DNA of 64,000 nucleotides from an uncultured Thermococci archaeon. GTDB taxonomy: Archaea > CAYQAE01 > CAYVLA01. The translations under genes were made by a program, and so were the position numbers. Under the pieces are notes generated by a model, which saw only the letters and a list, made by a program, of their open reading frames with translations, did no database searches and was not told the origin of the DNA. Where the stretch lies: positions 88,004 to 152,003 of the forward strand of contig CAZJVP010000099.1 in the NCBI GenBank assembly GCA_964549615.1, given 5' to 3'. Every line of letters begins with the position of its first letter. Positions within the stretch are counted from its first letter, which is position 1. Shown piece by piece: positions 25,397-54,808 of the stretch.

Positions 25397-26554
25397 ATGA
25401 AGCAGATAGGAAATCTCACAATCGCGCTCCTCATCGTGCAATCCATCACTGCAGCGGTGCTCAGCGTTGACGCCGTGTCCCCGGGTCTTGACGATTTGGA
25501 GGTTTGGGTGGCCCGTGAGGCCATGAATCTGGTCGAACTGTCCCATCTTTGTGACGACCTTGCCGCGCAGATCTCTGGGGGCCGAACGGATGGTACGAAC
25601 CTCGCCGACTTGCTTGCCAGCCTGTCCGACCGGCTTGAGGCAGTCAGGACCGCGCTGGATGGCCTCGAGGCGCAGATACGATCGATGGAGATGCCCGAAT
25701 CGGATGTAACCGCAGGACTGCTCAAGGACATCGAACTTCTCAGGTCACAGAACGCCGCCCTTCGTGAGAAACTCCAGATCCTGAGGAAAGCAGCCTACGC
25801 GGGGCCGCCCCTAGCTGAAGGCGGGAGTACGGACTCTAGGCTCGTGACAAGCGCTTTGGGCAAAGCAGCATACGCCATGCTCGTCGTCTCCCAGGAGATG
25901 CGGGGAAGCTTTTTGGACATCTCGAGCATCATCGGAGCAGGCATCGGGACGCTCGCAAGGCTCAGCGATGCCACGGGTGGCCGGTTGCCAGTGGGCGCCA
26001 CGCCCGGGCTCGTGGTCACCGTCTTCGCCGTCCTCCTTGCCTTCGCGCTGGTGAGCATGGCCATTCAGACCTACTACAGGGAAGCATTCGATCATAGGGC
26101 AGACGACACCCGCATCCCGGGCCTGCTAGTAGCGTCTGCCGTGCCCTGGGGTGATGTCTCCTCACCGACAGGTGGGCCATTCTTGGACATTTCTGCCAAA
26201 GGCGAGGCGACGGGCCGCGCTGGAAAGCTTTCGGACGCAGATGAGGAGTACGCCATCATGCTTCTGAAGCTCGGCTACAGGGAGGAGGCCCTCCGGGTCG
26301 TATCCCCCGGAACGACCACTCGGCATTCGCCCCGCGGCCAAGCACCACCCCGGGATGGGGGTCAGACCGATGGATCGCTCGTCGGGCGCGCAGGGCCCGG
26401 CCCCCTGGGCAGGCAAACGCGGCGCGATCCTGCGAGGCATTTCGGACAGGCAAGGAGGCTGTACAAGAAGGCCTTCAACTCGCTGATAATAGCGGGCAGA
26501 AGGAGCAGGCGGTACAAGATGGGGCCCATCCGACGGGCCGGGAAGAAACCCTAG
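25397..26554 (+). CDS. Membrane-anchored coiled-coil protein with conserved cytoplasmic EYxxxLxxLGY motif
   Basis: Signal peptide, heptad-rich segment, TM LVVTVFAVLLAFALVSM, then DEEYAIMLLKLGYREEA; TATA-like TTTTAAG at about 25331. Confidence 0.75.
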   Translation: MKQIGNLTIALLIVQSITAAVLSVDAVSPGLDDLEVWVAREAMNLVELSHLCDDLAAQISGGRTDGTNLADLLASLSDRLEAVRTALDGLEAQIRSMEMPESDVTAGLLKDIELLRSQNAALREKLQILRKAAYAGPPLAEGGSTDSRLVTSALGKAAYAMLVVSQEMRGSFLDISSIIGAGIGTLARLSDATGGRLPVGATPGLVVTVFAVLLAFALVSMAIQTYYREAFDHRADDTRIPGLLVASAVPWGDVSSPTGGPFLDISAKGEATGRAGKLSDADEEYAIMLLKLGYREEALRVVSPGTTTRHSPRGQAPPRDGGQTDGSLVGRAGPGPLGRQTRRDPARHFGQARRLYKKAFNSLIIAGRRSRRYKMGPIRRAGKKP

Positions 26555-26808
26555 CGTTATTCCCCTAGCGGTCGAAGGGGAGATTCCCGTTGAGCGCTTG
26601 TACCCGTACCCGGCCGAGCACGCGTCGAAGACTTGCCCTGCCCGTCCTAGATGCGGTTCGTGGCCATGGATGCCAAGATCGATGAAGAACCGGGCGTGGT
26701 CCGCAGCCGGGTTGGGCCTCGGGTAGGTGCGGATCATGGGTGAGGAGAAGGAGGTCTTGCCGTTTGATCGGGACGCGACTAAGCTCAGGAAGATCTCAGG
26801 GGACGGGC

Positions 26809-27591
26809 ATGGCCGGAGAACCTTGTGAACTGGAGCGGCACAGGCAGACGAAGGAGACCTTCAGGCACCGATACGAGGTTGCATACGCGTCGGGATCGAC
26901 GTACGCGGGGTTGGCACAAAGATGGCGCGAGGTCGTCGAGTTCCCGCTGGTATCGTCCGCGACCCCCCCGGGGCTTGTCCTTGACGCGGGTTGTGGCGAC
27001 TGCACGTTGACCAGGTTCCTCTGCACCCCCTCAAGACGGATCATCGGACTCGACTTCTCATGCCATGCCCTGCAGGCCGCAAGGAAGTGGTTTCACGGCG
27101 CCAGCGATGAGACGATTCCGGAGCTGATGAGAGGGGATATCGATCGACTACCCTTCAGAGATGGTTGTTTTGACGGAACGGTCTGCGTCGGAACCCTGGA
27201 GTACTTTTCTGACCTGCGAGCGGTCCTCGCTGAGCTGGGAAGGGTCTCCAGAAGGGGCGCACGCTTGGTATTCACCGTGAGAAACAGGAGACGCGTGATA
27301 GGGGCAACCCGCCACGGAGTTGAGAGTCCAGGGAACGTCTCCCCTTTGTTTGCCTTCCACGATGTAAAACAGGTGAAAAAGGCCGTGGAAGAGGCAGGAG
27401 GGCGGAATCCGAGGATCTTGCCGTACTTCGCCATCTCTCCGGCAGGCTTGGCAGGGCTCCTCGCCGCTTTGCCCGGCCCCCTGCAAAGAGCGGGATTCCG
27501 GGTCTTGTGCCTGCTGGAGAGGATGGCGACAGCTACCCGTGCCGGGTTGCTCATCTCGAGGGTGCTCCTCGTCTCCTACACCGTGACCTGA
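26809..27591 (+). CDS. Class I SAM-dependent methyltransferase
   Basis: VLDAGCGD, IGLDFS, GDIDRLPFRDGCFD, LAELGRV..GA. Confidence 0.88.
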   Translation: MAGEPCELERHRQTKETFRHRYEVAYASGSTYAGLAQRWREVVEFPLVSSATPPGLVLDAGCGDCTLTRFLCTPSRRIIGLDFSCHALQAARKWFHGASDETIPELMRGDIDRLPFRDGCFDGTVCVGTLEYFSDLRAVLAELGRVSRRGARLVFTVRNRRRVIGATRHGVESPGNVSPLFAFHDVKQVKKAVEEAGGRNPRILPYFAISPAGLAGLLAALPGPLQRAGFRVLCLLERMATATRAGLLISRVLLVSYTVT

Positions 27592-27665
27592 CCCGCATCG
27601 TCCGCCTGGAACACCCTCGCCGTAGAAGACCGATCCCCGACGAACGCGTAGCCCATCCCGACCGA

Positions 27666-29531
27666 TCACTTTGGCACCGGTCGACCGGGCCTATCGCCGA
27701 ACGTGACGCGGAGCCAGATCTCCAGATTTACGAGCGTCCCGATGAGCTCCCAGTTCCGAGGGATGTCGGAGAAAAGCGAAAGCACGCCGTCCCGATCCAG
27801 AAGCCCAGATGCCATCAGCCTGCCTCCAAGCACCATCTCCTCGGCGAAAGCACGGAGCCCGTTTGCATACCATCGCATTAGAGGTGCGTAGAAACCGCTC
27901 TTGCCCCGCACCACCAGCCGCATAGAAAAGCCCTCTTTTTCCATCAATCTCCTGAGGAAATCCTTCGTACGTGGCCTCTCGTAGAATGCGGCTGGCTCCC
28001 TCTCTAGAACCGGCTCGCACACCCGTCTATCCATGAAGGGGTAGGTTGGGACGACGGACGCAGACCGATGCCAGTTCCACAGCGCCCTGAACCTAGATGG
28101 GTCCGACTTGGTGAAGCTCGTGAACCTGTAGGCGTTGAAAGGGCCTAGCCTGTACGCCCTGTCAAGCTCGCTTCGAAGGACGGCCATGGCTTTCGCCCAT
28201 GCGGAATCTGGCACTAGGCTCGTCGATATCACTGCGCGCGCCTTCCTAGAGGAGCGGTCGAGTCTCTTCCGGGGCAGGAAGGTCGGAAGAACTCCCTGGA
28301 TGAGAATCCTGAGCAGGTGCCGAAAGGCGGCCCGTCGGGGGGTTGTCGAGGGATCGAGATACCTTGCCAAGCAGTGCCTAAGCAGCCTGAGGCCCGAGGC
28401 AGTGACCCGCCCCTGGTATACGAGCGAATATAGCGTATCGGCCGCCAACGCTTCCAAGAGCGACGGGCGGCCCCCAAAGGACCCGTCTGCCCCATCCCCG
28501 CTGAAGACGTGCTTCGTCCCCTGCTCGGAGGCATGCAAGGCAGCGCAGTAGTAGGGCAGCCCTCCGTCTCCTTTTGCGCTTTCCTCGGCCACCCTTATGC
28601 ACTTCTCAAGAAGCCTCGGAAACGCCTCCAACGAGAGCGGCCGACCCGCCTTGTGGACTGAGCCGATTCGCTCGCTCGCAAGACGAGCGTATGGTTCCTC
28701 ATCCCAACCTCTCTCGTCGATGCCCAAGGACAGGGTCACGAGCCGGGGTTCGGTCTCGGTCTCGCGGGCCAGCTCTGATACCAGACAGCTCACCAGACTC
28801 GAGTCGGTCCCCCCGCTGAGGTAGGAGTAGAACGGTGGCTCAAGACCCGTCATCCTTTGAGCTACAGACTCTCGGAGACGTTGCCGGAACTCGTCTTGCG
28901 ATAGGGCTTCTGTTCTTCTGCGCCGAAGTACCTTCTCTGCGTCCCAGTACACGCACTCCGTGAGCCCCTGCTCGTCGATCTGGATGTAGTGACCTGGCCT
29001 CGCCTTCCTCACAGGCCTCAGCAGTGTCCGAGACGAGCCAATCTTGCCATCGACCAGGAGTTCAAGGAGGCCAGTCTCGTCGTAGTCCGGCTCGGTGTCA
29101 AGCTGCGCCAAAGACCGGAAGGAAGAGGAGAACACCAGAGCGCTGTTGACCATCCTGTAGTACAGCGGCCGACCGCCGAAGTGATCTCTAGCCAAGATAG
29201 CGCGTGTCTGTCCAGGATGGTATATGACGGCCAGGAATTCGCCGTTGAGACCCTGGAGGACGCTAGGACCGATCTGGCCGTAGAGCCTGCCAATCCCTGC
29301 GGCACTTCCTCCCTCCAGAGGGGGAAACAGCCTACCCGACAGGGCAACGAACACGTCTGAAGTCGATAACCATTCGAGCCTCTCCGCTAGGCTTTCATAA
29401 CCTCGGATCTCGAAAGGGCCCGAGCAGTAGACATGATCCGGCTCGCCTAGATCGATGTTTCCTGCGACCGCATCGATCAGGGATGTCGGGCTGCCTTCGC
29501 CCCTCGAGTAGCCGCCCACCAGGGTGCTCAT
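27666..29531 (-). CDS. Second asparagine synthase-like protein lacking N-terminal Cys (likely start ATG 29531)
   Basis: MSTLVGGY start; LNGEF, RDHFGGRPLYY, LSGGTDSS, SGDGADGSFGG, YPFMD, KDFLR; paralogue of 17359..19224. Confidence 0.85.
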   Translation of the reverse strand: MSTLVGGYSRGEGSPTSLIDAVAGNIDLGEPDHVYCSGPFEIRGYESLAERLEWLSTSDVFVALSGRLFPPLEGGSAAGIGRLYGQIGPSVLQGLNGEFLAVIYHPGQTRAILARDHFGGRPLYYRMVNSALVFSSSFRSLAQLDTEPDYDETGLLELLVDGKIGSSRTLLRPVRKARPGHYIQIDEQGLTECVYWDAEKVLRRRRTEALSQDEFRQRLRESVAQRMTGLEPPFYSYLSGGTDSSLVSCLVSELARETETEPRLVTLSLGIDERGWDEEPYARLASERIGSVHKAGRPLSLEAFPRLLEKCIRVAEESAKGDGGLPYYCAALHASEQGTKHVFSGDGADGSFGGRPSLLEALAADTLYSLVYQGRVTASGLRLLRHCLARYLDPSTTPRRAAFRHLLRILIQGVLPTFLPRKRLDRSSRKARAVISTSLVPDSAWAKAMAVLRSELDRAYRLGPFNAYRFTSFTKSDPSRFRALWNWHRSASVVPTYPFMDRRVCEPVLEREPAAFYERPRTKDFLRRLMEKEGFSMRLVVRGKSGFYAPLMRWYANGLRAFAEEMVLGGRLMASGLLDRDGVLSLFSDIPRNWELIGTLVNLEIWLRVTFGDRPGRPVPK

Positions 29532-29876
29532 TGGACTAGTCGAGGACCCGGCACGGATAAAGCTTTGGCAATCCCGGTCCCGGCTCGATTGGTCGAGGTT
29601 TCCCGCGGGCAACTCGATCGACGTCTGCCCGGTAAATCCACGTCCCAACCCGACCTAACGTCTAAAGCCAGGGTAGCCAAAGATGACCGTGTGGCAACAG
29701 GCTCGAATGGAAGCAAGCGCCCACGATAGCCACGGCGAAGTCATTTTCCCGGTCGCGAGATGCGATCGTCAAGGAGCGACCGCGAGGACACCAAGAAGAG
29801 TTCTCATAGAAGCCATCCCATGGAATCATCAGGGCCTTCTTTCCGGGGTCAGCTGTCGTAACGTGGGAGATGCGAC

Positions 29877-30176
29877 GTGTCGCACGACCTGAACGTTACC
29901 TTCCTGAACCTGCCATATCCCCGGGGATTTCGGGTACACCGGCAATATGCAGGGGGCTTCGGCACGGTCGAACACCTAGAACCGGGTGGTCAGACCGGCT
30001 CGACGCTGATGCCTCGCATATTCTCGGCCCAGGCAGCTGCAATCGCTGAGGGGATGGAACATCGCACCTTCGTCATCGACGCGCTCTGCACCACGCACGT
30101 GAACCCGGTCGAACTCCCGGTTCCTAGAGATGCGAATGCCCAGCGGGACCGCATCGGACACATGAGATTGCAATGA
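29877..30176 (+). pseudogene. 5' remnant of a B12-binding radical SAM gene
   Basis: VTFLNLPYP...RQYAGGFG...MPRIFSAQAAAI...VIDAL resembles a B12-rSAM N-terminus; ends after about 99 aa with no CxxxCxxC. Confidence 0.55.
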
Positions 30177-30303
30177 ATACCACGGGATCATTCGGAAAGG
30201 TTCCGGTCTTCCCGGCCCTGGATTCCCCAACCTTCTTTATAAAGGCCAGACGGCCCCTCATCATCGGGGCCGCAAGGAGAACCGACCACCGGGGAAGAAT
30301 CGA

Positions 30304-32940
30304 ATGTCAAGAGGTCTTGCAAGCGGACTGCTGATTAGGGAGGCAGCCGTTCCACTTACGTCATCCATCCTCTTGTGTTTGCTGTCGGCCATATCCCTGA
30401 ACCAGGCATCAGCACTGCCTGCAGGTTTCCAGGAGTTCTACCTGCCGCTGCCTGCCGATCTGACCCAGGACGTCTTCCAATCAATCCACGGCTGGAACCA
30501 GCCCAGGGAACTCATGCACTACCTCGTCGCCGTCACGGCGAGCGGCGACAATACCGTCGTCTATTACGACCACTGGGAAGTCGACGGCTTGGAGGGCCCG
30601 GGGGCCGCTGGGTACGATGAGGTCGTCCATCTTAACAAGGGAGAAACCCACGTCTTTGAGAGCGCCAACATACCCTCCGACTTCCGCGGCGCAGCCACGT
30701 ACTACGATGGGGGCGACAGGATCTACGTTGCCGGGGGCCTACTGCAGGTTGTTGTGTCAACATGGGCCGAGGCTCTGGGCACCGTCTTCACGGATGCGTG
30801 GGAGATCTACCCCGTCCAGGCGTGGGGCACCAGCTACGCCGTACCGGTGGGTCAGGATCTTGGGCAGTGGCCGCATAACTACGATGATTTCGATGCTGTA
30901 TACATCCTGGTCATGTCTGCGACCGACGGAAACCAAGTCACCATCGACGGCGCCACGACAACCTTGAGCCGGGGGCAGAGCGTAGCTTACAGCGTCCCGA
31001 AGGCAGGCACCTGGGTGACCTCCACCCACCCAGTCCAGGTCCAGCTCGTGACCGGGCAGCCGGGCAGCGCCTACGAGATGCGGGGATATACCATCACTCC
31101 CTATGAGTACTGGGGTTCAAGCTACTACGCCGCCGTCCCGAGCTGGCCCCCAAGCTCTGACGGTAATCCCCTCACCGCCCACGCCCCCTACACCGATATC
31201 TTCCTCTACAACCCGAACCCCTTCTTGATCACCATAACCTGGCAGGACCTGTCGGGCTGCGGCACCATCTACCTGGAACCGGGTGAAACCAGATCCTTCC
31301 AAGCCTCGACCTGGCACCACGTTCCGACAAACTCCGGCGTCTACCTGAGCTCCTCACACAAGTTCTGGGGCATCGCCTCATGCGACACCGAATCATTCAT
31401 CTGGGACTGGGGATACTCGCTCATACCGGAAGCGCTGCTGGGGACGGACAACTACGTCGGTTGGGCGCCGGGAACCCGCACGCTCAGCGACAACGGCTCC
31501 CCCGTGTACATAATGGCGACGAGCGATCATACGACCATCTTCATTGACTACTCGCCAAACGATGGCATCTTCGACAGGGTGATAAGCGACCTCGACAGGC
31601 TGCACACGATCGAGGTCTACGACCCGGACATGGACAATACGGGCATGCACATCGTCAGCACGGCACCGGTGGCGGTCGTCTGGGGCGAAAGCCCCATATC
31701 GGCAGGCGCGGGGGACCCGTACCTCGACATGGGGTATGCGTGTCTTCCGCTCCCGATCGAATGGGTAGACCTCGCGCTGGAAATCGACAAGTCAGCGGAG
31801 CCGGGCGTAATCCGCCCTGGCGAAGCGGCCAACTTCAGGATCATGATAAGGGTCCCGAGCTACGCGGGCTCTCCCGTGACGGGCATAGGCCTCGTCGACG
31901 CCCTTCCTTCCGGCTGGCTTTACCTTGCAGGCAGCGGATCTCCCACTGATCCAACTGTCACCGGGGATCCCGCCGACGGATGCGTCCTAGCTTGGGACCT
32001 TCAACGGGACCTTTGCCCGGGCCAGTCCCTGACGGTCACGTTCAAAGCCGTCGCCACCCCATCCGCGGACACAACCAAGCCGAACAGGAACGTTGCCACC
32101 GTAACGGGGCGGTCCCTGGGAGTGACGCTGGCGGCAGACGACGACGCTTTCGTCCAGGTCGTTGCCGCCCACAACCCAGCCATCCTCGTTACGAAGACTG
32201 GCCCGAGCACCGCCAGGATCGGAGACACGGTCACCTACACCATCACGGTCCAACACGACCCCTCATCCGACAACTCCCCGGTGCATGATTTGAAGATCAC
32301 CGACAGCTTGACCGAATCGGTCACATTCGTCAGCGGGGACGACGGAGACGGAGTGCTCGATTACCCGGAGATCTGGACGTACATAGCGACCTACACAGTT
32401 CTTCCAACCGACCCCGACCCACTGCTCAACATCGCCACGGCGGAAGGATTAGACCTTGACGGCGATATCGTATCCGACACCGACACCCACAACGGCGCGG
32501 ATCTTGAGTTCGCCCCAGCCATCCTCGTTACGAAGACTGGCCCGAGCACCGCCAGGATCGGAGACACGGTCACCTACACCATCACGGTCCAACACGACCC
32601 CTCATCCGATGGTTCCGACGTAACCAACGTTTCGGTGACGGATGACATCGCTGGGCCGGCTCTTTACCTGAGCGGCGACGACGGCGACGGGATCCTTGAG
32701 CCCGGCGAGGTTTGGGTATTCGCGGTAGAGTATGCGATTCCCGCCGATGCTCCGAACCCATTGCGGAATACGGCCACCTGCTCTGGCATCGACAAGGACG
32801 GTGAAATGGTCTTCGGCCACGACGACCACAGCGTTCTAGTCCAGAGCGGTGTGGATCCGCCTTCGGTACCCGTCTTCCCGGCCGCGGCAATCGCGGTGGC
32901 GATGCTCGGCCTGTGCGTGCTTTCGAGGAGGAAGAGCTGA
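30304..32940 (+). CDS. Large surface protein: IgGFc-binding-like N-region, DUF11/Ig-like repeats, PEF-CTERM-like tail
   Basis: Signal peptide; PVQAWGTSYAVP and STHPVQVQL motifs; LEIDKSA and ILVTKTG...GDTVTYTITV repeats; C-terminal VPVFPAAAIAVAMLGLCVLSRRKS; TATA TTTATAAA at about 30236. Confidence 0.85.
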   Translation: MSRGLASGLLIREAAVPLTSSILLCLLSAISLNQASALPAGFQEFYLPLPADLTQDVFQSIHGWNQPRELMHYLVAVTASGDNTVVYYDHWEVDGLEGPGAAGYDEVVHLNKGETHVFESANIPSDFRGAATYYDGGDRIYVAGGLLQVVVSTWAEALGTVFTDAWEIYPVQAWGTSYAVPVGQDLGQWPHNYDDFDAVYILVMSATDGNQVTIDGATTTLSRGQSVAYSVPKAGTWVTSTHPVQVQLVTGQPGSAYEMRGYTITPYEYWGSSYYAAVPSWPPSSDGNPLTAHAPYTDIFLYNPNPFLITITWQDLSGCGTIYLEPGETRSFQASTWHHVPTNSGVYLSSSHKFWGIASCDTESFIWDWGYSLIPEALLGTDNYVGWAPGTRTLSDNGSPVYIMATSDHTTIFIDYSPNDGIFDRVISDLDRLHTIEVYDPDMDNTGMHIVSTAPVAVVWGESPISAGAGDPYLDMGYACLPLPIEWVDLALEIDKSAEPGVIRPGEAANFRIMIRVPSYAGSPVTGIGLVDALPSGWLYLAGSGSPTDPTVTGDPADGCVLAWDLQRDLCPGQSLTVTFKAVATPSADTTKPNRNVATVTGRSLGVTLAADDDAFVQVVAAHNPAILVTKTGPSTARIGDTVTYTITVQHDPSSDNSPVHDLKITDSLTESVTFVSGDDGDGVLDYPEIWTYIATYTVLPTDPDPLLNIATAEGLDLDGDIVSDTDTHNGADLEFAPAILVTKTGPSTARIGDTVTYTITVQHDPSSDGSDVTNVSVTDDIAGPALYLSGDDGDGILEPGEVWVFAVEYAIPADAPNPLRNTATCSGIDKDGEMVFGHDDHSVLVQSGVDPPSVPVFPAAAIAVAMLGLCVLSRRKS
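32175..32609 (+). repeat. 96-bp exact direct repeat (32175..32270 = 32514..32609) within the Ig-like repeats
   Basis: Identical nucleotide block with 339-bp period; the rest of each domain is diverged. Confidence 0.9.
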
Positions 32941-33110
32941 GAGGGCGTCTTCCCCTCGCGCTAGACCTTCGTTCCGAATGCACCCGGCCTCAGGTAGATG
33001 GCTTTCGACGGCCCGGAAGACGTTGCTGTGAACCAAGGGGCCCGCATTCACAGACGCCAGCGAAAGAGATAAGTAATCGAATGGCAAACTATCAGCTGCG
33101 AGCTAACAAT

Positions 33111-34545: not shown

Positions 34546-35763
34546 GTGGGCGTGCGGAGAGGGCTTCTTGTCCTTCTAAGCCTCGTCCTCGCACTCCCCC
34601 ACGGGTGCGGCGTGTCCGGTCCCAGGACCGATGGCAACGGCGTGATCCGCCTGCTTCACATCGGCAAGGCATGGTTCTACCCGGGCCACCCAGCCCCCGT
34701 GCTGAGCCAGGACCCGCGCATCAACTACTACCCCGTCCCGGCCCACGCATGGTCGATGGGGCAGGAGGCCTTCCGGTGTCTCCGCATATACCTTCCAAGA
34801 AGCCAGCGCGCGCTCTACGACAACTTCGACGTGGTCATAGAGGACGGCATGGATGCAAGCCACCTGAGGGACGAGTTCCAGAACTGGCTAAAGGAGGGGG
34901 TCTGCAAGGAGGGCATGGGCTTCCTTATGGCCGATGACTCTTCAAGCTTTGCGACCAGCGGCAGCCACACCTCTTGGTACCTGCACCCGATCGGGGACAT
35001 CCTCCCGGTCGACGACAAGCCGGGAATCTTCTACGAGGTGCACGGCTTCCACATAGTCGTTGAGGAGGAGTACCGCGACCATCCCCTAATGCGCAACCTT
35101 CCATGGCACGAGATAAGGATATGGGCGCACAACCGCCCCTGGGAGAGGGAGGGAGCCATAGTCCTGGCCAGGATGTCGCCTGAGCTGTGGTGCAACCGCG
35201 GCAAGCCCGTGATCGTCTACTGGGACTACGGCGAGGGGAGGTCCGTAGCCTACGTGCACAAGTGGCACGGCACGCCCGATTTCTACCGCTGGAAGTGGCA
35301 CATCGATGTGCTGTCGCATCTGATATACTTCCCGGCCCGCGTGCCCATCCCGCAGGAGCTGGAGCTTGTACATGAGATAAGGGCGCTTCTTAACCAGTTC
35401 CACTACAGAAGGACCTACCTGGCCTCGACGATCGATTTTGCTGACAGGTTCGGGGCCAACCTGAGGCATGTGGAGGTGAAGCTTGCCGATCTTGCCGGCG
35501 CCAAGACGGCGCTGGACAGGCAGTATGTGGCCCAGGAATTTGAGGAGTGCCTTTCATGGCTGTCAAGCCTTCTAGCCGAGCTGGAGGCCATGACGGATGA
35601 GGTCCTGGAGGCCAAGGACAGGGCACTGTTCTGGATCTTCGTGGCAGAATGGCTCGTCGTATCGGGCACCTCGATGGTCGCCGGCTTCCTCTTGTGGACC
35701 CTGATGGTGAAACGGAGGCTGTACAAGGAGGTAGTGGTCACCAAGCTGACCGAAAAGCTCTGA
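34546..35763 (+). CDS. Secreted class I GATase-like-fold protein with helical stalk and C-terminal TM anchor (hypothetical)
   Basis: Signal peptide; FDVVIEDG, GMGFLM, IGDILPV, PVIVYWDYGEGRSVAY resemble a DUF1355/GATase-like fold; C-terminal WIFVAEWLVVSGTSMVAGFLLWTLMVKRR. Confidence 0.7.
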   Translation: MGVRRGLLVLLSLVLALPHGCGVSGPRTDGNGVIRLLHIGKAWFYPGHPAPVLSQDPRINYYPVPAHAWSMGQEAFRCLRIYLPRSQRALYDNFDVVIEDGMDASHLRDEFQNWLKEGVCKEGMGFLMADDSSSFATSGSHTSWYLHPIGDILPVDDKPGIFYEVHGFHIVVEEEYRDHPLMRNLPWHEIRIWAHNRPWEREGAIVLARMSPELWCNRGKPVIVYWDYGEGRSVAYVHKWHGTPDFYRWKWHIDVLSHLIYFPARVPIPQELELVHEIRALLNQFHYRRTYLASTIDFADRFGANLRHVEVKLADLAGAKTALDRQYVAQEFEECLSWLSSLLAELEAMTDEVLEAKDRALFWIFVAEWLVVSGTSMVAGFLLWTLMVKRRLYKEVVVTKLTEKL

Positions 35764-36708: not shown

Positions 36709-36715
36709 GCCTCTC

Positions 36716-43546: not shown

Positions 43547-43603
43547 GGATCGCCATGAGAAGGTGCTTCACCTTTGCCGGATCACACTCGGCCGGAGCCA
43601 TGC

Positions 43604-47007: not shown

Positions 47008-47169
47008 GCGATCGGCTCGCCCTCGCGGGGGATCGCCCCTGATAAAGCTGTCCTGTCTTGCGGATAAAGGATGCGGCTATGGCGCCCTGAGGGCATGGAA
47101 AACCTTCCTGGAACGAACGGCGGGCAAGACAAGGTTTTGATAGCGTTCAAACGGAAGCCCCCTCCGGTC

Positions 47170-47823
47170 CTAGCGCTTGAGCCCCGCCCCTTCCGGCTGG
47201 ACCGACCTTTTGCGTGCACCAAGGCCCCTCTTGACGAGGAGGGCCGCCCCCAGCGCCACGCAGGCTGCAGCCAGGAGCATGCCAGCCACAAGGCCCAAAA
47301 GCCGCAACGTCTCGGACGCGATCGATCCGATGATGCGGAGGGACCTACCGAGGCCCGCCCTAATCTGGCCCGCCCAGTCCAGCAGGCCGGGAGACGACGG
47401 CCCAACCCCTATCCCGCTTCCCTCCTCGCCGGGCTCCCCAAACCCTTCCTCGACCGCCTCCGCCCGCCCGATCGCTAGCTCTATCCTGGTGGTTCCGGCC
47501 TGAAGCTCAACCTGTTTGCGCGCCGAAAGCCCACCCACCCTGGCCTCGACCACCACGGTGTCGCCGGTCTCAAGGAATGGAACGTCCCCTGTATCAAACA
47601 TCCCCCGCCCCCACATGAAGGGGGGCACCTCGGGCCCGTCCACCGGCACGGCCACCCAGAGCGCTTTGTCCAGGTCGGTTATGTTTATGATGGTCCCCGA
47701 GCCAACCGGCCTGTCGTAAAGTGTCACGGTCCCGGCCACGGCGTTGACGTCTAAGTCGGCCCACACACCCCCCATGAGGACAACCGCGGGGATGAGCAGG
47801 ACGACGAAGACTCCGGGCTTCAG
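47170..47823 (-). CDS. Secreted DLDVNAVAG-domain protein with C-terminal TM anchor (probable CTG start)
   Basis: CTG at 47823, behind a GGGGTGA SD, restores signal peptide KPGVFVVLLIPAVVLMGGVWA; domain homologous to the N-terminus of 52427..54808. Confidence 0.75.
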   Translation of the reverse strand: MKPGVFVVLLIPAVVLMGGVWADLDVNAVAGTVTLYDRPVGSGTIINITDLDKALWVAVPVDGPEVPPFMWGRGMFDTGDVPFLETGDTVVVEARVGGLSARKQVELQAGTTRIELAIGRAEAVEEGFGEPGEEGSGIGVGPSSPGLLDWAGQIRAGLGRSLRIIGSIASETLRLLGLVAGMLLAAACVALGAALLVKRGLGARKRSVQPEGAGLKR

Positions 47824-47827
47824 GCTC

Positions 47828-48760
47828 TCACCCCATGACGGTGAAGCTCGCGTCCTGGTCGCACTCTATGAAGTAGGCCGCGTTGGGCTGGAGGCTTGTG
47901 AAGGACGAGTCCGAGCTCCACCACAATCCCTGTTCGGGGAAGTACTGGACCGCCTTGTACTCGCCCGCAGAGCTCCTGCGCCAGATCTTCGATATGGGGT
48001 GGTAGGAGCCGGTCTGTGGGAATGCCTGGGATATCGGCGTCGCCGCGCCCACCCATCCCACGAGGTTTAATCCCTTCTTCAGTTGGATCACCCGGCTTTC
48101 GGAGCTTCTCGCCACCGCCACCTCGCACGGCGCCGAACACTCGATGAAGTAGGCCTCGCCGTGCCTGAGATAGGTGAAACTCGCATCAGCGCTCCACCAG
48201 CCCGCGCCCTCATAGTAGGATGCGGAGACGTAGGAGCCCGACGAGGTCCTCCTCCAGACGCGTCTTACGCCCGGTGCGGACGCGAAGGCCTCGGCAAATG
48301 TTCTGTCGGGACCGGGCCATGAGACGAGATTCAGGCCGCGATCCAAGAGAAGGTTGGTCGTTTCCCCCGACCCGGTGACCATGACCATCACGGGGCGCAC
48401 CAGCGATGTCGCGAGCGTGCCGCCCGTGAGGATCTCGATGGTCCCCTGGAACAGCCCCGAGGGCTGGTCGGCCGGCACCCGGTAGGTTAGATCTATCACC
48501 CTGCTCTCGCCTGGGGCAAGCTGGATCGTGGTGCTGGACGGGGTTATCATGGGGGCTGCTGAACCGTTGACAAGGATCCTCACGCTGGCCGTCTGGTCGC
48601 CCTCGTTCCAAATCCTAAGGTAGGAAGTCTTGCTTCCGCCTTTGGGGATCGTGAAGGACTGATCGGGCCCGGTAAGGGCTAACCCGCTCAGTGAGGCCGC
48701 CAAGCCGCATAGGCAGAAAAGAACGCCCGCCGCCATGATCACCGAAACGGCCCGAGCCAT
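47828..48760 (-). CDS. Secreted protein: Ig-like domain plus two tandem ~80-aa GLNLVxW/AYFIEC repeats
   Basis: Signal peptide from ATG 48760; LRIWNEGD...LAPGESRVI...GLFQGTIEI Ig domain; repeats GLNLVSW..WRR..WWS.D.SFT.L...AYFIEC. Confidence 0.8.
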   Translation of the reverse strand: MARAVSVIMAAGVLFCLCGLAASLSGLALTGPDQSFTIPKGGSKTSYLRIWNEGDQTASVRILVNGSAAPMITPSSTTIQLAPGESRVIDLTYRVPADQPSGLFQGTIEILTGGTLATSLVRPVMVMVTGSGETTNLLLDRGLNLVSWPGPDRTFAEAFASAPGVRRVWRRTSSGSYVSASYYEGAGWWSADASFTYLRHGEAYFIECSAPCEVAVARSSESRVIQLKKGLNLVGWVGAATPISQAFPQTGSYHPISKIWRRSSAGEYKAVQYFPEQGLWWSSDSSFTSLQPNAAYFIECDQDASFTVMG

Positions 48761-48770
48761 CAAGCCACCC

Positions 48771-49676
48771 CTACCTAGCATCGAAGATGAGATTGCCCTC
48801 GTAATCCTGGTCCTTGAAGGTCTCCGGTATCTTGATGAAGATGTAGAGGTCCATCTGGCCAGCACCCTCCAGCCGGTCTATGAAGACCTGGCGGGTAGAG
48901 GAGAGCGTGAGGATGGGACGGCCGCTCTCCGGAACTCCCGGCGACGGGTCGTCATCGACCATGAAGTCGTTCGGTGCAAGCTTGTATGCGGGGTCCTGCT
49001 TCCCGACGAAGGTGGTGCAGCGCACCCCGATCTGGATCTGCGTGTTGCAGGCGTAGGAAGCCCGAAGGCCGGTTGAGGCGACCTTTCCGGGCTGTCCGGA
49101 GACGGTTATCGACTGTGAGCTCAGGCCAAACGAGACGAAGGTCGTGACCGTCACGCTTGTGATGCGGCTTGAGGACTCGGCCTCGTCCTCGACGATCGCC
49201 ACTATGGTCCATGCGCTGGCTCGGGCCGACCTGTCCAACCGTGCCTTGAAGCGCCATGTCGCTTCCGCACCCGTCCTGTCGCTGGGCGCTTTGCAGCCCG
49301 CCTTGTCAAGCTGGGAGCCCGTGAAGCCATCCGAACTTGACCAGCGGAAGGTATAGTGATCGGTCAGCGAGTCCTGGGCGGATTGCGATGATTGGGCCGA
49401 GTACGCCACGATCGTGATCTCGAGTATGTCCGCCGCCGTGTTGTTGTCCCTACACCTCACATCGAGGGTGAATGCCACCCCCGGGTCTATGACGGAGGTT
49501 GTCGCGGACCGATCGTCAAGGATCGAGATCGATATCAGCTCCGGCTTCGCGTTCAGTATGTAGGCGATGATGGGTATCTCGATGCCCGAAGAGAGCGGAA
49601 CGAGCCCCATGATTAGGATCAAGAACAAGGCAAGCCCTGACGGTCCACGACCCATCGCCCGCCGACCCATCCGCAC
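48771..49676 (-). CDS. Secreted two-domain beta-sandwich protein
   Basis: Signal peptide; NAKP...DNNTAADI...WTIVAIVED Ig-like domain; C-terminal KIPETFKDQDYEGNLIFDAR. Confidence 0.75.
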   Translation of the reverse strand: MRMGRRAMGRGPSGLALFLILIMGLVPLSSGIEIPIIAYILNAKPELISISILDDRSATTSVIDPGVAFTLDVRCRDNNTAADILEITIVAYSAQSSQSAQDSLTDHYTFRWSSSDGFTGSQLDKAGCKAPSDRTGAEATWRFKARLDRSARASAWTIVAIVEDEAESSSRITSVTVTTFVSFGLSSQSITVSGQPGKVASTGLRASYACNTQIQIGVRCTTFVGKQDPAYKLAPNDFMVDDDPSPGVPESGRPILTLSSTRQVFIDRLEGAGQMDLYIFIKIPETFKDQDYEGNLIFDAR

Positions 49677-49774
49677 CGCCCTGCGCAGCCTTACTCCAGC
49701 GGATCGGACAAGCTGTATTAACTATTCCAAACGTCAGGGTGCCCACTCAGGGATTGTCGCAACGTTGGTTGAGA

Positions 49775-50539
49775 TTACTGCAGGGTGCCGCGCCTTCGGA
49801 TGAGGAAAAACACCAAGACCGCCGCGGCGAAAGCGGCCGCCACCCCAACGTAGAGCAGGGACGGCTTCTGAGGATTCTCGACCACAAAGACCGTCACCGC
49901 CTCGGCCGTGAGGTTTGAGTCGGAAGCGACCGCCTTGAGCTCATGTTCCCCTTTCGACCACCTGCGCGTCCTCCATACGTAGGTCGCCTTGCTGGAGACG
50001 AGCTTTCCGTCAATGTAGATCTCGAAGTAAACCTCGTCGCCGTCCGGGTCTCCGCCCTCGACCGCAACGGACACGTCGCCCGATAGCTTCTCCCCCTCCT
50101 TTGGGAAGACTATCCTGACCCATGGGGGACGGTTTCCGGCCGGCTTTGCCACGGTTATCGATATCTGCCTCGTCACGCCCGGCACTATCTGTTCGCCTTC
50201 AAGTAAAACGACGATCTCTCCCTCGAAGTAGGCCGGGTAGCTCGGCGCCGCATAGACTATCTCCACCCGCCTATTCTGCAAGGGATCTATGGTAAGGGAG
50301 GTGGTCTCCAGGAAGGTGATCGAGGTGACGTTTCCGTGCAGCTCTATCCTGTATGCCCCGGTCGCATTCCCGTCGTTGTAGATCCTGATGTACGAGGTGA
50401 CGTTCTCGCCCGTCAGGAGCGTGAATGCCTGCGGCGGACCCGAGATCCCGACGCTGGCCGTTTCGCTCGCGACTGCCTGCCCCACCCAGACGACCAGGAA
50501 CAGGGAGACCATCGACTTGGGGCCGAGGAACACTTGCAT
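49775..50539 (-). CDS. Secreted Ig-like + Big-type domain protein with C-terminal TM anchor
   Basis: Signal peptide, IRIYNDGN Ig domain, NRPPWVRIVFP...DPDGD...GEHELKAVASD, TM followed by RRR. Confidence 0.8.
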   Translation of the reverse strand: MQVFLGPKSMVSLFLVVWVGQAVASETASVGISGPPQAFTLLTGENVTSYIRIYNDGNATGAYRIELHGNVTSITFLETTSLTIDPLQNRRVEIVYAAPSYPAYFEGEIVVLLEGEQIVPGVTRQISITVAKPAGNRPPWVRIVFPKEGEKLSGDVSVAVEGGDPDGDEVYFEIYIDGKLVSSKATYVWRTRRWSKGEHELKAVASDSNLTAEAVTVFVVENPQKPSLLYVGVAAAFAAAVLVFFLIRRRGTLQ

Positions 50540-50835
50540 GACGCTGAGACGGGCGGATAAAAATCCTTTCCGGCCGGCCGCCCGGCCATGAAGGGATGCC
50601 CAAAACGCGCAGGCCTATCAGAGGGAAACGAATCCAAACCCAGTGAATCGACTCCACGGCGCGGGCCTTTCAGCCTGAGATACCCTTTATGTTCCCAGCC
50701 GCAAGACGGCATCCTATATGAGGTCCACCGGAATCCGGCTTGCCGCTGAGGCCGCAGCCGGGTTCTCGTCCAAGATTGTCCAAGCGATCAGCGTCCGGTT
50801 TCCCCGGGCCTCGTGAACATGCTCAAGGCGATCCC

Positions 50836-51672
50836 ATGACTTTGTCAAACGCCGAGTCCAGAGCCGTCATTCGCCAGATCCTCGAAACATGCCTCGTGCG
50901 ACGCGCAGCATGCCTCAGCGAGGCTGACCTCGGCCGATCGGCCGCCGTATTCGCCCCACACCCGGATGACGAGACGCTCGGCTGCGGCGGGATGATAGCC
51001 CTCAAGAGACGCGTCGGAGCCGACGTGAGAGTCGTCTTCATGACCGACGGAAGAAGAAGCAACCGGAGGCTGATGCCCGAGGAAGAGATCAGGGCAATTC
51101 GAAGAGACGAGGCCCTGGCTGCAGCGAAGACCCTGGGAGTCGATCCGGACAGGCTTACCTTCCTAGACTTCCAGAACGGCATGCTGGCGCAAGTCTTCCA
51201 AGCCGCGCGGCAGAAGGTCGGCCAGATACTGGAGGAGGAGCCGGAAGAGGTCCTCATCCCCTACCACGGCGAGCCGCGCCTGGCATCGGACGAACACCGT
51301 TTGACCAATCAGATCGTCACCTCCGTTCTTGAGAGCTGCAAGCGGGTCAGGTACGTCTACGAATACCCCATCTGGCTGTGGAACCGTTGGCCATGGGTGC
51401 CCGTCCCACAAGTGAGGCTTAGGCGGCGGATTCGGTTCCTCCTCGCAAGCGCCAGGTGCTGCGTCGCGCTGTTCCAGGACTTCCGGTACTGCGTCGATGC
51501 CCGGTCCGTCCTCGACCTCAAGAAAGCAGCGCTGGACTGCCACAGATCCCAGATGACCAGGATCGTCCCGGACGAGAGGTGGAGGACGCTGCCCGACGTC
51601 GGGAACGGCGAATTCTTGCGATGTTTCCTCGGGGGCTACGAGTTCTTCAGCCGCCACAGGATTCCGCGCTGA
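50836..51672 (+). CDS. PIG-L/LmbE family deacetylase
   Basis: FAPHPDDETLGCGG, VFMTDG, RRDEA, EH, KKAALDCHRSQ. Confidence 0.9.
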   Translation: MTLSNAESRAVIRQILETCLVRRAACLSEADLGRSAAVFAPHPDDETLGCGGMIALKRRVGADVRVVFMTDGRRSNRRLMPEEEIRAIRRDEALAAAKTLGVDPDRLTFLDFQNGMLAQVFQAARQKVGQILEEEPEEVLIPYHGEPRLASDEHRLTNQIVTSVLESCKRVRYVYEYPIWLWNRWPWVPVPQVRLRRRIRFLLASARCCVALFQDFRYCVDARSVLDLKKAALDCHRSQMTRIVPDERWRTLPDVGNGEFLRCFLGGYEFFSRHRIPR

Positions 51673-51741
51673 TGAAGGCCCGTATGCTAGAAAGCAGCCG
51701 CCGCCGGGCCGTCCGACGCAGGCGAATGCCCATGCCGGTCG

Positions 51742-52455
51742 CTAGGACGGCAATGAGGATGCCGCCTCGATCGAGTTCAGGACCCTCTTTGCGTCGCTGT
51801 GGTAGCCCAGCCTTATCAGCATCTTCACATACTCAAGGTCCGACCGCACGACCCTTGGAGGCGCGGCTGGGGGAACCGGGTCCCAGAACGCCCTCTTCCC
51901 GCCGTCCCCTCCAGTGCCCGACTGCCAGGATCCATTTTCCAGCTGCAGGACACGGAGGAGAACCTCCTTGCACTCCGGGTCCCAGAACTTGTTGTACCAG
52001 TAGCGACGGGCAGCAAGCGCGACGCACCCGGCGACCCCGATCACGGCCATTGCTAGCAGAACGAGCCTGCCAGCGTCGAAGGAGACCCGATCGACGGTCC
52101 TCCGGGATGCACCAAGGCTCGTGACGGCTCCAAGGCCAGCCCTGAGGGCGCCGCTGGCCGCGCTCGCCGCCGCCAAGGCATCGTTCTTCAGGGTGCTGAG
52201 AAGCGAAACCATCCTTCCGAATGCTGAGCCCAATGCTTCACCTACTGGGCCCAAAAAAGTGGGAAAGGTGGAAGTTGGACCTTCTTGGACGCCCGCCTCG
52301 GCCGTCTGGGACGTATTGGAATGCTGTTCCGCTGCATCGTGCGCGAGAGTTTGCCCCGGGACAAGAGCCGTGATGAGCCCCAGCACAACCAGTGCACGCA
52401 GGACAGCCGACGGAACCGTCACGCCGCTACTTCTCAGTAAGCTTCCTGAGTGCAT
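51742..52455 (-). CDS. Membrane protein with conserved cytoplasmic EYxxxLxxLGY motif (start 52455 or GTG 52422)
   Basis: Signal peptide, Ala/Gly-rich amphipathic segment, TM LVLLAMAVIGVAGCVALAA, C-terminal DLEYVKMLIRLGYHSDA. Confidence 0.75.
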   Translation of the reverse strand: MHSGSLLRSSGVTVPSAVLRALVVLGLITALVPGQTLAHDAAEQHSNTSQTAEAGVQEGPTSTFPTFLGPVGEALGSAFGRMVSLLSTLKNDALAAASAASGALRAGLGAVTSLGASRRTVDRVSFDAGRLVLLAMAVIGVAGCVALAARRYWYNKFWDPECKEVLLRVLQLENGSWQSGTGGDGGKRAFWDPVPPAAPPRVVRSDLEYVKMLIRLGYHSDAKRVLNSIEAASSLPS

Positions 52456-54808
52456 CGTCCGCCTCCTTAGTGAATCCCAGCCTCCTGAGATTCTCGATGT
52501 ACTCCATGTCCGCCTTTGACAGCCTCGCTGAGTCGCCTGCATATGCCCCTGACGTCTCAGCCCCAACATCGGGACGCGCTGACCGGATCTGGGAAGGCCC
52601 AAGTGTGGAGGAGGAAAATGGGCGCGTATTTTCGGCCGTCCGGGCGGGCGGGGCATAGCCCGCCGATGAAGCTCCCGGCCGTTCGGTTGGAGAATGACCC
52701 GCGACGGCCCGCGGGGCAACGGATCGGGTGACCAGCTCGGCCGAGACCGGCCTGGTGGAAACGACAACCCTACCCCTCATGACTCTCGACGGCTTGCGTC
52801 TGACGAGCATGGTCGGTTGAGCCGGGGCCTGCGGTGGGGTCAGGGACTTCTGCGCAGCGCTGCGCAGTAAGGGTGCGGTCTTTCCCTGGATGCCCCTCAA
52901 TATGTCCTTTGCCGTTCCCGAGGCCTTCCTCTTTCTGCCAGCCCTAATCCACGACGTCTTGGCAACGATCGAGACGACGGATGCCCCGACTATCATCGCT
53001 AGAACCATGATGCCCAGCTTGCTCCGTACCCCCCGGGAGAACAACCTCAGCCCGCCACCGGCCATGCGAGCCACGGTCGCCAAGATTCCGTCGGGCTGGC
53101 TCGTGATGGTCTGGTTCAGCGTTGCGTTTCCTTCAACCAGATAGGCCGGCGCCCTCCTCGACAGCTCATCGATCTGGGAGAGGAGCTGAGCGTTAGCGAT
53201 CCGAAGGTCCTCAACGGCCCTGTTGACATCGGCCAGGGAGGCCTCGGTCAGGGTTTTCTCCTCGTGGAGCCTCTGGACCTCAGCCTGCAATCCTTCTGCC
53301 AGATCCTCAAGCATTCGAAGCTCCTGCTCTCTTGCCGCAATGGTCGCCTCGAGGCGGTCCTTCTCGACGGTTAGGTTGGCGACCAGATCTTGCAGCATTG
53401 ACGAGTTGGACTCAAGCCCCGAGAGCACAGCTTCTATCTCGGCGATCCTTGCCCGGTAGACCGAGATCTGCGCCTCGGAGGCCGTCCTCGTCGCATTCAG
53501 CTCAAGGATCACTGACCCATAGGCCGCCATTACCTCCTCGAGGGTCTTCTGCAGCGACGCAACATTCCCGGACAGGTTGAGCTTCTCTGCCTCAAGCCGG
53601 GCGATCGTCTCCGCGTCTAGGGCTCTCCGCGTCCTTAAGGTCTCAAGCTCTCCGAGCAAAAAGACGGCCCTTTGTTCTGCGTCCCTAAGCTTGCTTTCCA
53701 GGAGCTCCTTCTGACCCATGATCTCCGATACTTGCGCAAGGAGCGACCTCACCTGTTCCTGGAGGCCGACGTTCACGGTTGAGAGCCCGGAGATCTCGGC
53801 CTCCAAGGCATCGATCCGAGCCTGATAGAACTCTACCAAGGCAGTGACGTTCACCGACACCTCGACACATATGTCCCGGCTTGCCGACAGCCCGCCGGGG
53901 TCGGAGACGGTCAGGATGATCCTGTCCTTCCCGCTCGCGGATGGCTGGGCAGCGATCGTCAGGGTCGCGTTCTGGATCGTTCCCTGCACAAGCGTTCCCC
54001 CAGTGGCCGACATGGAAAGCGCACCCAGGGCGTCGTCCGGGTCGTGAACGTATCTGGACAGCTCGACCGTCGCGACCTCGCCCTGCATTAGGGAGATGGT
54101 CGGGATCGGCGCTATGCTGGGAGGATCGTTCACGGGGGTAATGAAGACCCGGATCTGGCCGGACACGGTGAAGCTTGAGTCCTGGACGTACACCGTCACG
54201 ACGTCCTCGAGCACCCCTTCCGGATAGAGGAATGTCAGGACGTGGCCCTGCACAGAGACGTACGGATTCGTCACCTCGATATGCAGGCTGTGAACCGGCG
54301 TGTCAGGGTCCGATAGGTAGGGATCAAGGTCGAGCTGCCACGCCACATCCTCCAGCCCGCGTTGGGGCGGTATGGCAGCAAGGGAGGGAGGTCGGGGCGT
54401 TTGGCCGTTTACGTTCACGATGGTCGTGCCTGCCACTAGGGTTGCCGTTGCCTGGCCGGACGCCCCGACGATTGAAACGACGACTCGGTCCCCGGTGTTG
54501 AACTGCGGCACGTCGCCCGTGTCGAACCTACCTGCCCCCTTCTGGAAGGGCGGGATGTTCGGTCCGTCCACGGCCGTCGTGACGGAGAACCCGGTGGTCG
54601 AATCGTACACCATGATCTGCGTACCGGCCGGCGCGGGGGCGCCATCGATCGTGGCGACGCCGGCAACCGCGTTGACGTCCAGGTCCGCGGGCACGCTTGG
54701 GATGAGGAAGAGGATGATCAGGATGACCAGGCCTGAGACACATGCACGCCGAATCGATCCGAAGTCCTCCCCTCCACGGCCTCGACCGACCGTGCGGTCT
54801 GTGCGCAA
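52427..54808 (-). CDS. Large surface protein: DLDVNAVAG domain, cadherin-like repeats, long coiled coil, TM, cytoplasmic EY-motif
   Basis: TTG 54808 behind a GGAGGGG SD; EDVAW..DPD and PVNDPP cadherin-like motifs; roughly 230-aa heptad region; TM; DMEYIENLRRLGFTKEA. Confidence 0.82.
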   Translation of the reverse strand: MRTDRTVGRGRGGEDFGSIRRACVSGLVILIILFLIPSVPADLDVNAVAGVATIDGAPAPAGTQIMVYDSTTGFSVTTAVDGPNIPPFQKGAGRFDTGDVPQFNTGDRVVVSIVGASGQATATLVAGTTIVNVNGQTPRPPSLAAIPPQRGLEDVAWQLDLDPYLSDPDTPVHSLHIEVTNPYVSVQGHVLTFLYPEGVLEDVVTVYVQDSSFTVSGQIRVFITPVNDPPSIAPIPTISLMQGEVATVELSRYVHDPDDALGALSMSATGGTLVQGTIQNATLTIAAQPSASGKDRIILTVSDPGGLSASRDICVEVSVNVTALVEFYQARIDALEAEISGLSTVNVGLQEQVRSLLAQVSEIMGQKELLESKLRDAEQRAVFLLGELETLRTRRALDAETIARLEAEKLNLSGNVASLQKTLEEVMAAYGSVILELNATRTASEAQISVYRARIAEIEAVLSGLESNSSMLQDLVANLTVEKDRLEATIAAREQELRMLEDLAEGLQAEVQRLHEEKTLTEASLADVNRAVEDLRIANAQLLSQIDELSRRAPAYLVEGNATLNQTITSQPDGILATVARMAGGGLRLFSRGVRSKLGIMVLAMIVGASVVSIVAKTSWIRAGRKRKASGTAKDILRGIQGKTAPLLRSAAQKSLTPPQAPAQPTMLVRRKPSRVMRGRVVVSTRPVSAELVTRSVAPRAVAGHSPTERPGASSAGYAPPARTAENTRPFSSSTLGPSQIRSARPDVGAETSGAYAGDSARLSKADMEYIENLRRLGFTKEADDALRKLTEK

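Follow-up and report, generated by a model that had tools for sequence, protein, structure and literature searches.

How archaea link a surface layer (S-layer) or surface stalks to processes in the cell interior, such as division, shape, or the placement of appendages, is largely unknown. A stretch of 64,000 nucleotides from an uncultured Thermococci archaeon, hereafter the window, poses this question in a concrete form. It encodes three proteins, P1, P2, and P3, in which the same short motif stands beyond a transmembrane (TM) helix. A preliminary description, made without database searches, treated the motif as an unnamed orphan, read it as a shared docking module that recruits a cytoskeletal, motor, or assembly factor, and grouped its three carriers into a candidate new envelope-spanning system. 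What is the motif, on which side of the membrane does it lie, and what might it do there? Our analysis indicates that it is no orphan. Instead, it is one unit of a lineage-specific repeat resembling the tetratricopeptide repeat (TPR), whose tandem form passes the cut-offs of the Pfam families TPR_14 and TPR_19. We propose, with a probability of roughly 0.55, that the lone unit, a predicted two-helix hairpin, is a cytoplasmic protein-protein docking module on a flexible tether. The features on which the argument turns are as follows, in window coordinates.

25397..26554, plus strand: P1, an open reading frame (ORF) of 385 residues with a hydrophobic N-terminus, a coiled-coil-like ectodomain, a TM helix at residues 205-223, and a C-terminal part of 162 residues
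26216..26311, plus strand: predicted hairpin unit of P1, residues 274-305, followed by about 80 further residues and so non-terminal
26456..26551, plus strand: polybasic C-terminal tail of P1, with 13-14 Lys/Arg and no Asp/Glu in the last 40 residues and a short hydrophobic core; kept in three sequences
51742..52455, minus strand: P2, an ORF of 237 residues (156 if the start is residue 82) with a TM helix at residues 131-149
51769..51864, minus strand: predicted hairpin unit of P2, residues 198-229
52427..54808, minus strand: P3, a stalk protein of 793 residues with a TTG start, a TM helix at residues 598-616, and a putative cytoplasmic tail of 177 residues
52439..52534, minus strand: C-terminal hairpin unit of P3, residues 759-790, with predicted helices at residues 765-776 and 780-792

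The motif as a repeat unit

The motif copies lie at 26225-26290 (plus strand, P1), 51790-51855 (minus strand, P2), and 52460-52525 (minus strand, P3), exactly where they had been placed for P1 and P3 and 5 nucleotides away for P2. All three fall within open frames in which G+C content dips at the second codon position (GC1 > GC2 < GC3) and reaches 0.71-0.76 at the third (GC3), comparable to the GC3 of neighboring enzyme genes (0.70-0.83). P1 is identical to the public record P0039, and the TTG start of P3 is preceded by GGAGG and an A/T-rich box. No RNA run is listed for the stretch; it is contained in a single DNA run, labelled hot springs metagenome, from which the assembly may itself derive. 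The extracellular parts of the three proteins differ, as first described, and a Gly/Ala-rich stretch ahead of the TM helix is visible by eye in each translation. When P1, P2, and P3 were compared pairwise, no significant similarity was found outside the motif and the coiled coil. Specifically, the units of P2 and P1 are 48% identical across 23 residues, and the coiled coils of P1 and P3 are 31% identical across 117 residues. On sequence grounds, P1 looks like the membrane-proximal half of a P3-like stalk.

The unit has the consensus LSxxDxEYxxxLxxLGxxExA, spans about 32 residues, and repeats with a period of 39-40 residues. A strict pattern of the motif occurs at 4 places in the six-frame translation of the 3,213,799-base genome, namely, the three tails and one soluble protein, and a relaxed pattern occurs at 10. 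The agreement among the three motifs is beyond chance. The protein behind the fourth strict match (contig C104) consists of four tandem units, and a profile search of the genome brought up four soluble proteins built from the unit (groups A to D), with four copies each in groups A to C and two or three in group D.

Profile searches in both directions link the tails to these soluble proteins. A profile made from the three tails alone retrieved exactly the four soluble repeat proteins (expect values [E] of 3e-13, 1e-7, 1.6e-5, and 0.11). Conversely, when the 61,611 six-frame ORFs were searched with a profile of the 14 soluble units alone, the sole other matches at E <= 1 were P1 (E 1.1e-5), P2 (8.2e-4), and P3 (0.56). 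The same soluble-only profile matched the C-terminus of 13 of the 14 members of the P3 family with 5-29 bits, including 19-29 bits for P3 homologues from elsewhere. Of the soluble repeats, those that stand first in groups A, B, and D are closest to the tails, down to the aromatic residue after the Gly. Taken together, these searches show, at the level of sequence comparison, that the tail motif is homologous to the soluble repeat unit.

To which known class does the unit belong? Nine soluble proteins from two genomes were scanned with Pfam. TPR_14 (PF13428; cut-off 23.5 bits) was found above its cut-off in five of them (25.7-29.0 bits) and TPR_19 (PF14559) in three; three of the nine gave no match. 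Neither SHOCT nor UBA, which the preliminary description had named as possible matches, appeared among the Pfam matches of P1 to P3 (E <= 1) or of the group A protein (E <= 10). Canonical TPRs are 34 residues long and come in three or more tandem copies. The unit resembles them in that its helix-turn-helix units stack in tandem. It differs in its longer period of 39-40 residues, in a weak structural match, and in its occurrence as a single copy on membrane proteins: the tails carry one unit each, compared with four in the soluble paralogues. To our knowledge, the N-terminal LSxxDxEY signature is absent from the TPR consensus.

The distribution of the unit is narrow. A search of 1.84 billion cluster representatives with the unit profile produced 57 matches at E <= 0.001. 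These comprise 27 soluble repeat proteins or fragments, 8 tails of P1, P2, or P3 type (the window's own records included), and 22 generic repeat proteins in which only the latter half of the profile aligns (17 TPR proteins, 4 ankyrin proteins, and P0047, which is ankyrin-like by eye). Among the 21 long multi-stretch matches of this search that were scanned with Pfam, 17 are canonical TPR proteins. The genome collection that we searched holds five species-level genomes for this phylum, four of them (2.4-4.0 Mb) in the window's family. The unit is present in all four genomes of that family, with 14-18 matches each, and in none of the 27 other archaeal genomes searched, one of which is the only genome of the sister family. 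It thus appears to define a new and compact subfamily of repeats that is known, at present, from a single archaeal family. The preliminary description had singled out a generic domain without conserved surroundings as the outcome that would count against it, and half of that outcome was observed: the class of domain is generic, but this particular subfamily is specific and conserved, as is its placement.

Structure prediction adds a fold. The AlphaFold2 model of the group A protein (7-row alignment) consists of four helix-turn-helix hairpins, with a predicted local distance difference test score (pLDDT) of 80.4 and a predicted template modeling score of 0.66. In this model and that of P3, the Ser/Thr of "LS" immediately precedes helix A, the turn of three residues contains the Gly, and "ExA" opens helix B. 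From these models we infer that the majority of the conserved positions of the unit are caps and core residues that determine its fold. A sequence search of the PDB with the group A alignment returned only the designed helical repeat 9k7u (E 0.0014) and GerE (E 0.065). The resemblance of "LTxxEREV" to GerE/LuxR-type sequences was dropped as too weak. The ESM Atlas, queried with the group A protein, returned unrelated bacterial clusters with scores of 0.89-0.91, an uninformative result.

The group D proteins (L004 559-1278, plus strand; P0019-P0033) have two or three units followed by a basic segment that resembles an amphipathic helix. The helical hydrophobic moment of this C-terminal segment is 0.60-1.15 in 14 of 14 sequences, compared with 0.42-0.54 in groups A to C of genome G000. 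No stretch of TM-grade hydrophobicity was found in any soluble repeat protein examined. The segment may serve to target group D proteins to the membrane surface.

Build, placement, and conservation of the stalk protein

The structure of P3 was predicted from a 5-row alignment (mean pLDDT 61.8). Its parts, in order from the N-terminus, are as follows.

54392..54688, minus strand: N-terminal beta-sandwich of P3 (the "DLDVNAVAG" domain), residues 41-139, pLDDT about 89, predicted to be transthyretin-like or carboxypeptidase-regulatory-like
53141..53848, minus strand: predicted coiled-coil stalk of P3, residues 321-556 (about 235 residues), with helices at 321-393 and 399-556, pLDDT 72-91
52961..53017, minus strand: predicted TM helix of P3, residues 598-616
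52529..52900, minus strand: predicted disordered cytoplasmic linker of P3, residues 637-760, pLDDT about 30, unconserved

Structural alignment of the N-terminal sandwich with VIA-align gave 1nkg (Z 8.5, root-mean-square deviation [rmsd] 2.8 A, 80 residues) and 1qmu_A (Z 8.0, rmsd 2.2 A, 75 residues). In the model, the sandwich is confidently predicted at residues 45-140, and two beta domains of lower confidence, cadherin-like or Big-like, follow it. At the other end of the protein, the hairpin (residues 765-792) has a pLDDT of 75-86 and forms an island within a tail of pLDDT about 30.

When the P3 model was searched with Foldseek, the sole match at E <= 0.001 was SlaB (8qox_B), the S-layer stalk and anchor protein of Sulfolobus acidocaldarius (E 7e-7, 432 alignment columns, 15% identity). 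VIA-align superposed P3 and SlaB with Z 8.3 over 206 residues at an rmsd of 71 A, and because of that rmsd, the match is one of domain order rather than of a rigid body. In SlaB as in P3, a signal peptide is followed by beta-sandwich domains, these by a long coiled coil, and the coiled coil by a TM helix toward the C-terminus. The two are unlike in sequence: the SlaB model NF040788 of NCBIfam gives P3 17 bits (E 0.0021, in the coiled-coil region) against a cut-off of 700. P3 is therefore best described, on the strength of its model, as SlaB-like in build and outside the SlaB sequence family. The excerpt of bioRxiv 10.64898/2026.08.21.746120 that is available to us describes stalked S-layer anchors for Sulfolobus and Staphylothermus, and the sole cytoplasmic tail that it describes is a highly basic stretch right after the TM helix of the Pyrobaculum S-layer protein. 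A tail of 47-211 residues that ends in a folded hairpin, as predicted for P3 and its relatives, is absent from the descriptions in that excerpt.

On which side of the membrane does the hairpin lie? The eight N-x-S/T sequons of P3 are all on the N-terminal side of the TM helix, six of them assigned to the coiled-coil stalk (positions 411-565), and six Lys/Arg residues lie within 15 residues after the helix. Because the N-terminus is signal-like, the sequons come before the TM helix, and the positive charges come after it, we place the P3 tail inside the cell. The topology of P1 was read from that of P3 by analogy, and we infer a cytoplasmic location for the motif-bearing tails in general. The preliminary description had given each protein a signal peptide and a single TM helix ahead of the motif. 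This holds in so far as all three have a hydrophobic N-terminus, one later TM helix, and a motif on the C-terminal side. It is doubtful for the signal peptide of P2. The long form of P2 is preceded by a good ribosome-binding site and opens like a signal peptide. Its codons 1-81 have a GC3 of 0.556, compared with 0.776 for the remainder, and the public gene call (P0041) begins at residue 82. Because of the atypical GC3 of these codons and the public start, the signal peptide and topology of P2 are uncertain. The long form starts 29 nucleotides inside the end of P3 (52427-52455, minus strand), and the P3 hairpin supplies its ribosome-binding site, AAGGAGG, through codons for Lys-Glu-Ala.

Comparison among P3 relatives separates what is kept from what drifts. 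A search with the P3 ectodomain brought up a family of similar stalk proteins, and 14 sequences (P3, 12 homologues, and one fragment) were examined. The hairpin is retained in 13 of them, at a distance of 13-18 residues from the C-terminal end, and the linker ahead of it varies in length from 47 to 211 residues in these 13. When five P3 sequences were aligned, the linker was unalignable, and the motif residues L, S, D, Y, L, G, and F were invariant. Since the motif has been kept while the surrounding linker diverged, it is, by this comparison, under selection. The ectodomains of the homologues are only 44-67% identical, so very recent common descent is unlikely to explain the conservation. P3-type tails occur in all four genomes of the family; the copy in G003 is a contig-edge fragment with TM helix, linker, and motif.

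The other two proteins have narrower distributions. An orthologue of P1 was found only in G001, a genome of the same genus (49% identity), and there are two public relatives as well. In the alignment of three P1-type sequences, the unit is nearly invariant, and the unit and the polybasic tail stand out as conserved islands. Sequence searches with P2 returned no homologue apart from its own record; it resembles the P1 orthologue only weakly (E 1.3e-4).

Possible docking and its alternatives

If the unit is a helical repeat under selection and probably inside the cell, what would a single copy be doing there? The unit occurs as four copies (two or three in group D) in soluble, presumably cytoplasmic, proteins and as a single copy on the tails of what appear to be type I membrane proteins. 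The single copy is carried mainly by the SlaB-like stalk P3, where it would sit at the extreme C-terminus behind a long, disordered, fast-evolving linker. A two-helix unit with so many conserved hydrophobic positions should pack against something. A hairpin tethered in this way would let the cell hold, position, or sense a surface stalk from inside. The likeliest partners would be the soluble repeat paralogues, through stacking of the hairpin on their solenoid, or other tail copies, and the basic amphipathic helix of group D could place the proteins of that group on the membrane. Much of the docking proposal made in the preliminary description survives: the module is conserved and under selection, its placement on the cytoplasmic side is supported, and docking is the most economical explanation. 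Nothing points to the cytoskeletal or motor partner that was suggested with it.

Prediction of a complex bears on the choice of partner. When the P3 tail (residues 745-793) was folded together with the group A protein, the score was 0.56 (0.57, 0.53, and 0.56 in separate runs), and the best of three controls scored 0.00. The runs agreed on 100% of contacts, and the pLDDT of the partner was at least 68. In the calibration of this score, complexes of known structure reached the mark in 58 of 80 cases and mismatched pairs in 2 of 110, and among the pairs that passed at 0.60 or less were only 7 of those 80 complexes and both of the passing mismatches. The prediction lends weak support to docking of the P3 tail onto the group A protein.

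Several observations weigh against docking, or against the links on which it is built. The tail is homologous to the partner's own repeats, and for that reason the complex model may stack it there by likeness alone. The conserved positions are mostly those expected to hold the hairpin together, and they point to no particular binding surface. In the window's gene annotation, no partner gene adjoins P1, P2, or P3. The kinship with TPRs is uneven, too. The three tails match no Pfam family, TPR included, at E <= 1, and none of 17 repeat units (three tails and 14 soluble) matches any NCBIfam family at E <= 10. TPR membership accordingly holds for the repeat family and is undetectable for the lone tails, because the soluble tandems pass the cut-off and the tails are without a match. 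The P3 tail of the window is the weakest match to the soluble-only profile (10.3 bits; E 0.56 genome-wide). The structural matches of the group A model are similarly modest: its best Foldseek match has E 0.065 and a TM-score of 0.21, with top rows that are all TPR (kinesin light chain, PilF, and OGT among them), and its best VIA-align match (Z 7.3, rmsd 3.4 A, 71 residues) belongs to a mixture of helical repeats in the generic range. The topology was read only from hydrophobicity, charge, and sequon counts, with the signal peptide of P2 in doubt. Finally, the hairpin is missing from two relatives of P3. In the P3 homologue P0080, linker and hairpin are replaced by a long arginine-rich tail, and the window itself encodes a short paralogue that lacks the unit.

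47170..47865, minus strand: hairpin-less short paralogue with a P3-like N-terminal beta-sandwich (42% identity to P3 residues 8-132), a TM helix, and a short basic tail

The lone hairpin has more conserved hydrophobic positions than it alone can bury, a property that would also suit self-association, in which two to four chains of one stalk, or of neighboring stalks such as P2 and P3, form a four- to eight-helix bundle under the membrane with no soluble partner, so as to lock the oligomer together or hold stalks in a cluster. The long coiled coils predicted for P3 and P1 would gather the tails, and P2 and P3 are adjacent, with an overlap of 29 nucleotides. Nevertheless, a linker that is long (47-211 residues), disordered, and variable would be odd for a structural lock, and the unit of P1 is not terminal. 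Moreover, the P2-P3 pair cannot represent a conserved function because P2 has no orthologue. We regard a bundle of this kind as possible, if unlikely. We think it quite improbable that the hairpin is a tag for biogenesis or turnover, read by a cytoplasmic chaperone, a targeting factor, one that couples glycosylation, or a protease adaptor, so that it would serve quality control or removal rather than anchoring. Such a tag would be in keeping with the fixed distance of the unit from the extreme C-terminus in 13 of 14 P3-type proteins, a placement that is common for tags, with the sugar-modifying enzymes that flank P3, and with the clustering, in two genera, of the group C gene with genes for three KaiC-like ATPases and PAC2, which is proteasome-assembly-chaperone-like. 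Known C-terminal tags, however, are short and unstructured, unlike a confidently predicted two-helix fold, and the unit of P1 is internal. The synteny of group C may merely reflect close kinship of the genomes, given that all four soluble groups keep their neighbors.

There are two further readings. The proposal that P1, P2, and P3 make up one new envelope-spanning system that recruits a cytoskeletal, motor, or assembly factor draws on their common motif and topology, on the adjacency of P2 and P3, and on the abundance of genes for surface structures and glycosylation in the window. It fits poorly with the comparative evidence. P2 has no homologue beyond its own record, P1, at a distance of 26 kb, was matched by an orthologue only within its genus, and neither of them is among the neighbors that P3 retains in another genus. 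G002 has P3 alone, with the queries that were used. Beyond motif and coiled coil, the three share no significant similarity, and no cytoskeletal or motor gene is linked to them. With P2 an orphan and P1 unlinked to P2 and P3 by neighborhood, we consider a single system very unlikely, and this part of the preliminary description is not supported. The notion that the tails show nothing but a generic helical or TPR-like resemblance, produced by chance convergence of amphipathic helices, is disfavored and hardly credible. It is true that the unit is short (about 32 residues), that its conserved positions are typical of helix caps and cores, and that the profile draws canonical TPR and even ankyrin proteins at weak E values. 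Yet the reciprocal profile searches were specific within the genome, the motif is invariant across P3 homologues while the linker decays, and the repeat occurs in 4 of 4 genomes of the family and 0 of 27 others.

A bolder form of the docking proposal is that, in this lineage, which is small and branches deeply, the stalk-tail hairpin plugs into a scaffold of soluble repeat proteins beneath the membrane, one group of which would be held there by its amphipathic helix. Such an undescribed transmembrane linkage is, in our estimate, rather unlikely. If it were true, it could allow a cell to position its surface layer, to count it, or to couple to it mechanically, all from within, and the lineage would have an archaeal equivalent of the polar hubs of bacteria or the receptor-adaptor links of eukaryotes. 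Since the SlaB-like stalk bears, at its inner end, a conserved hairpin that is tethered and predicted to be folded, and since there are candidate partners built from the same repeat, the question is open to binding experiments.

The nearest parallel in design is FimV/HubP, the polar hubs of Gammaproteobacteria. According to the portion of PMC12918733 available to us, the C-terminal motif of FimV/HubP is regarded as the main client-binding interface, and the architecture described there, a tethered C-terminal motif in the cytoplasm, is shared with P3. The differences are considerable. FimV/HubP is bacterial, its outer part is a LysM peptidoglycan binder rather than a coiled-coil stalk, and its linker is acidic, as opposed to the P3 linker, which is rich in Pro, Ala, Ser, and Arg in the window's genome and in Lys and Glu in G002. 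The model of the FimV C-terminus, TIGR03504 (cut-off 30.65 bits), matched none of the 17 units at E <= 10 and none of P1 to P3 at E <= 0.1; its sole scorer was the group B soluble protein, with 14.6 bits. We know of no description of FimV/HubP that includes a family of soluble relatives assembled from the same repeat. By this analogy, the likeness between P3 and FimV/HubP is one of design and not of membership, and the design has apparently arisen independently in archaea. A limited literature search for a single TPR in the cytoplasmic tail of an archaeal membrane protein returned nothing relevant, and within that scope we are aware of no earlier account of the motif.

Neighboring genes and loci

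The genes of the soluble paralogues sit in conserved surroundings. In genomes G000 and G002, which belong to two genera, the group C gene lies co-directionally between genes for three KaiC-like ATPases and a PAC2 family gene.

L002 4898-9129 (minus strand) and L032 811-5682 (plus strand): group C locus; one KaiC-like protein has a DUF7504 match, and in G002 there is also a thioredoxin-like match

All four soluble genes keep their neighbors between G000 and G002, and for this reason synteny singles out no partner.

P3 is flanked by sugar-modifying enzymes. Two neighbors of P3 recur beside it in another genus: a TIM barrel protein resembling sugar-phosphate isomerases and a PIG-L deacetylase. 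The window as a whole is rich in genes for surface structures and glycosylation, among them an archaeal prepilin peptidase and VWA and FG-GAP proteins. The product of 58279-60546 (minus strand; 755 residues), put forward as a partner in the preliminary description, combines an FG-GAP/PQQ-like beta-propeller with a helical stretch of about 350 residues after it and lacks an evident signal peptide, and 34546-35763 (plus strand) encodes a GATase1_like (PF07090) protein.

The short paralogue of P3 has surroundings of its own. Three secreted or membrane proteins are encoded upstream of it (47170-50614, minus strand), one with a twice-repeated Trp/Arg-rich module and a weak DUF5719 match. The same gene order recurs on contig C36 of G002 (L020 1-1481), where it precedes a full-length, hairpin-bearing gene of P3 type. 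Because the upstream gene order is the same, the short paralogue occupies the place that the long, hairpin-bearing protein has in the other genus.

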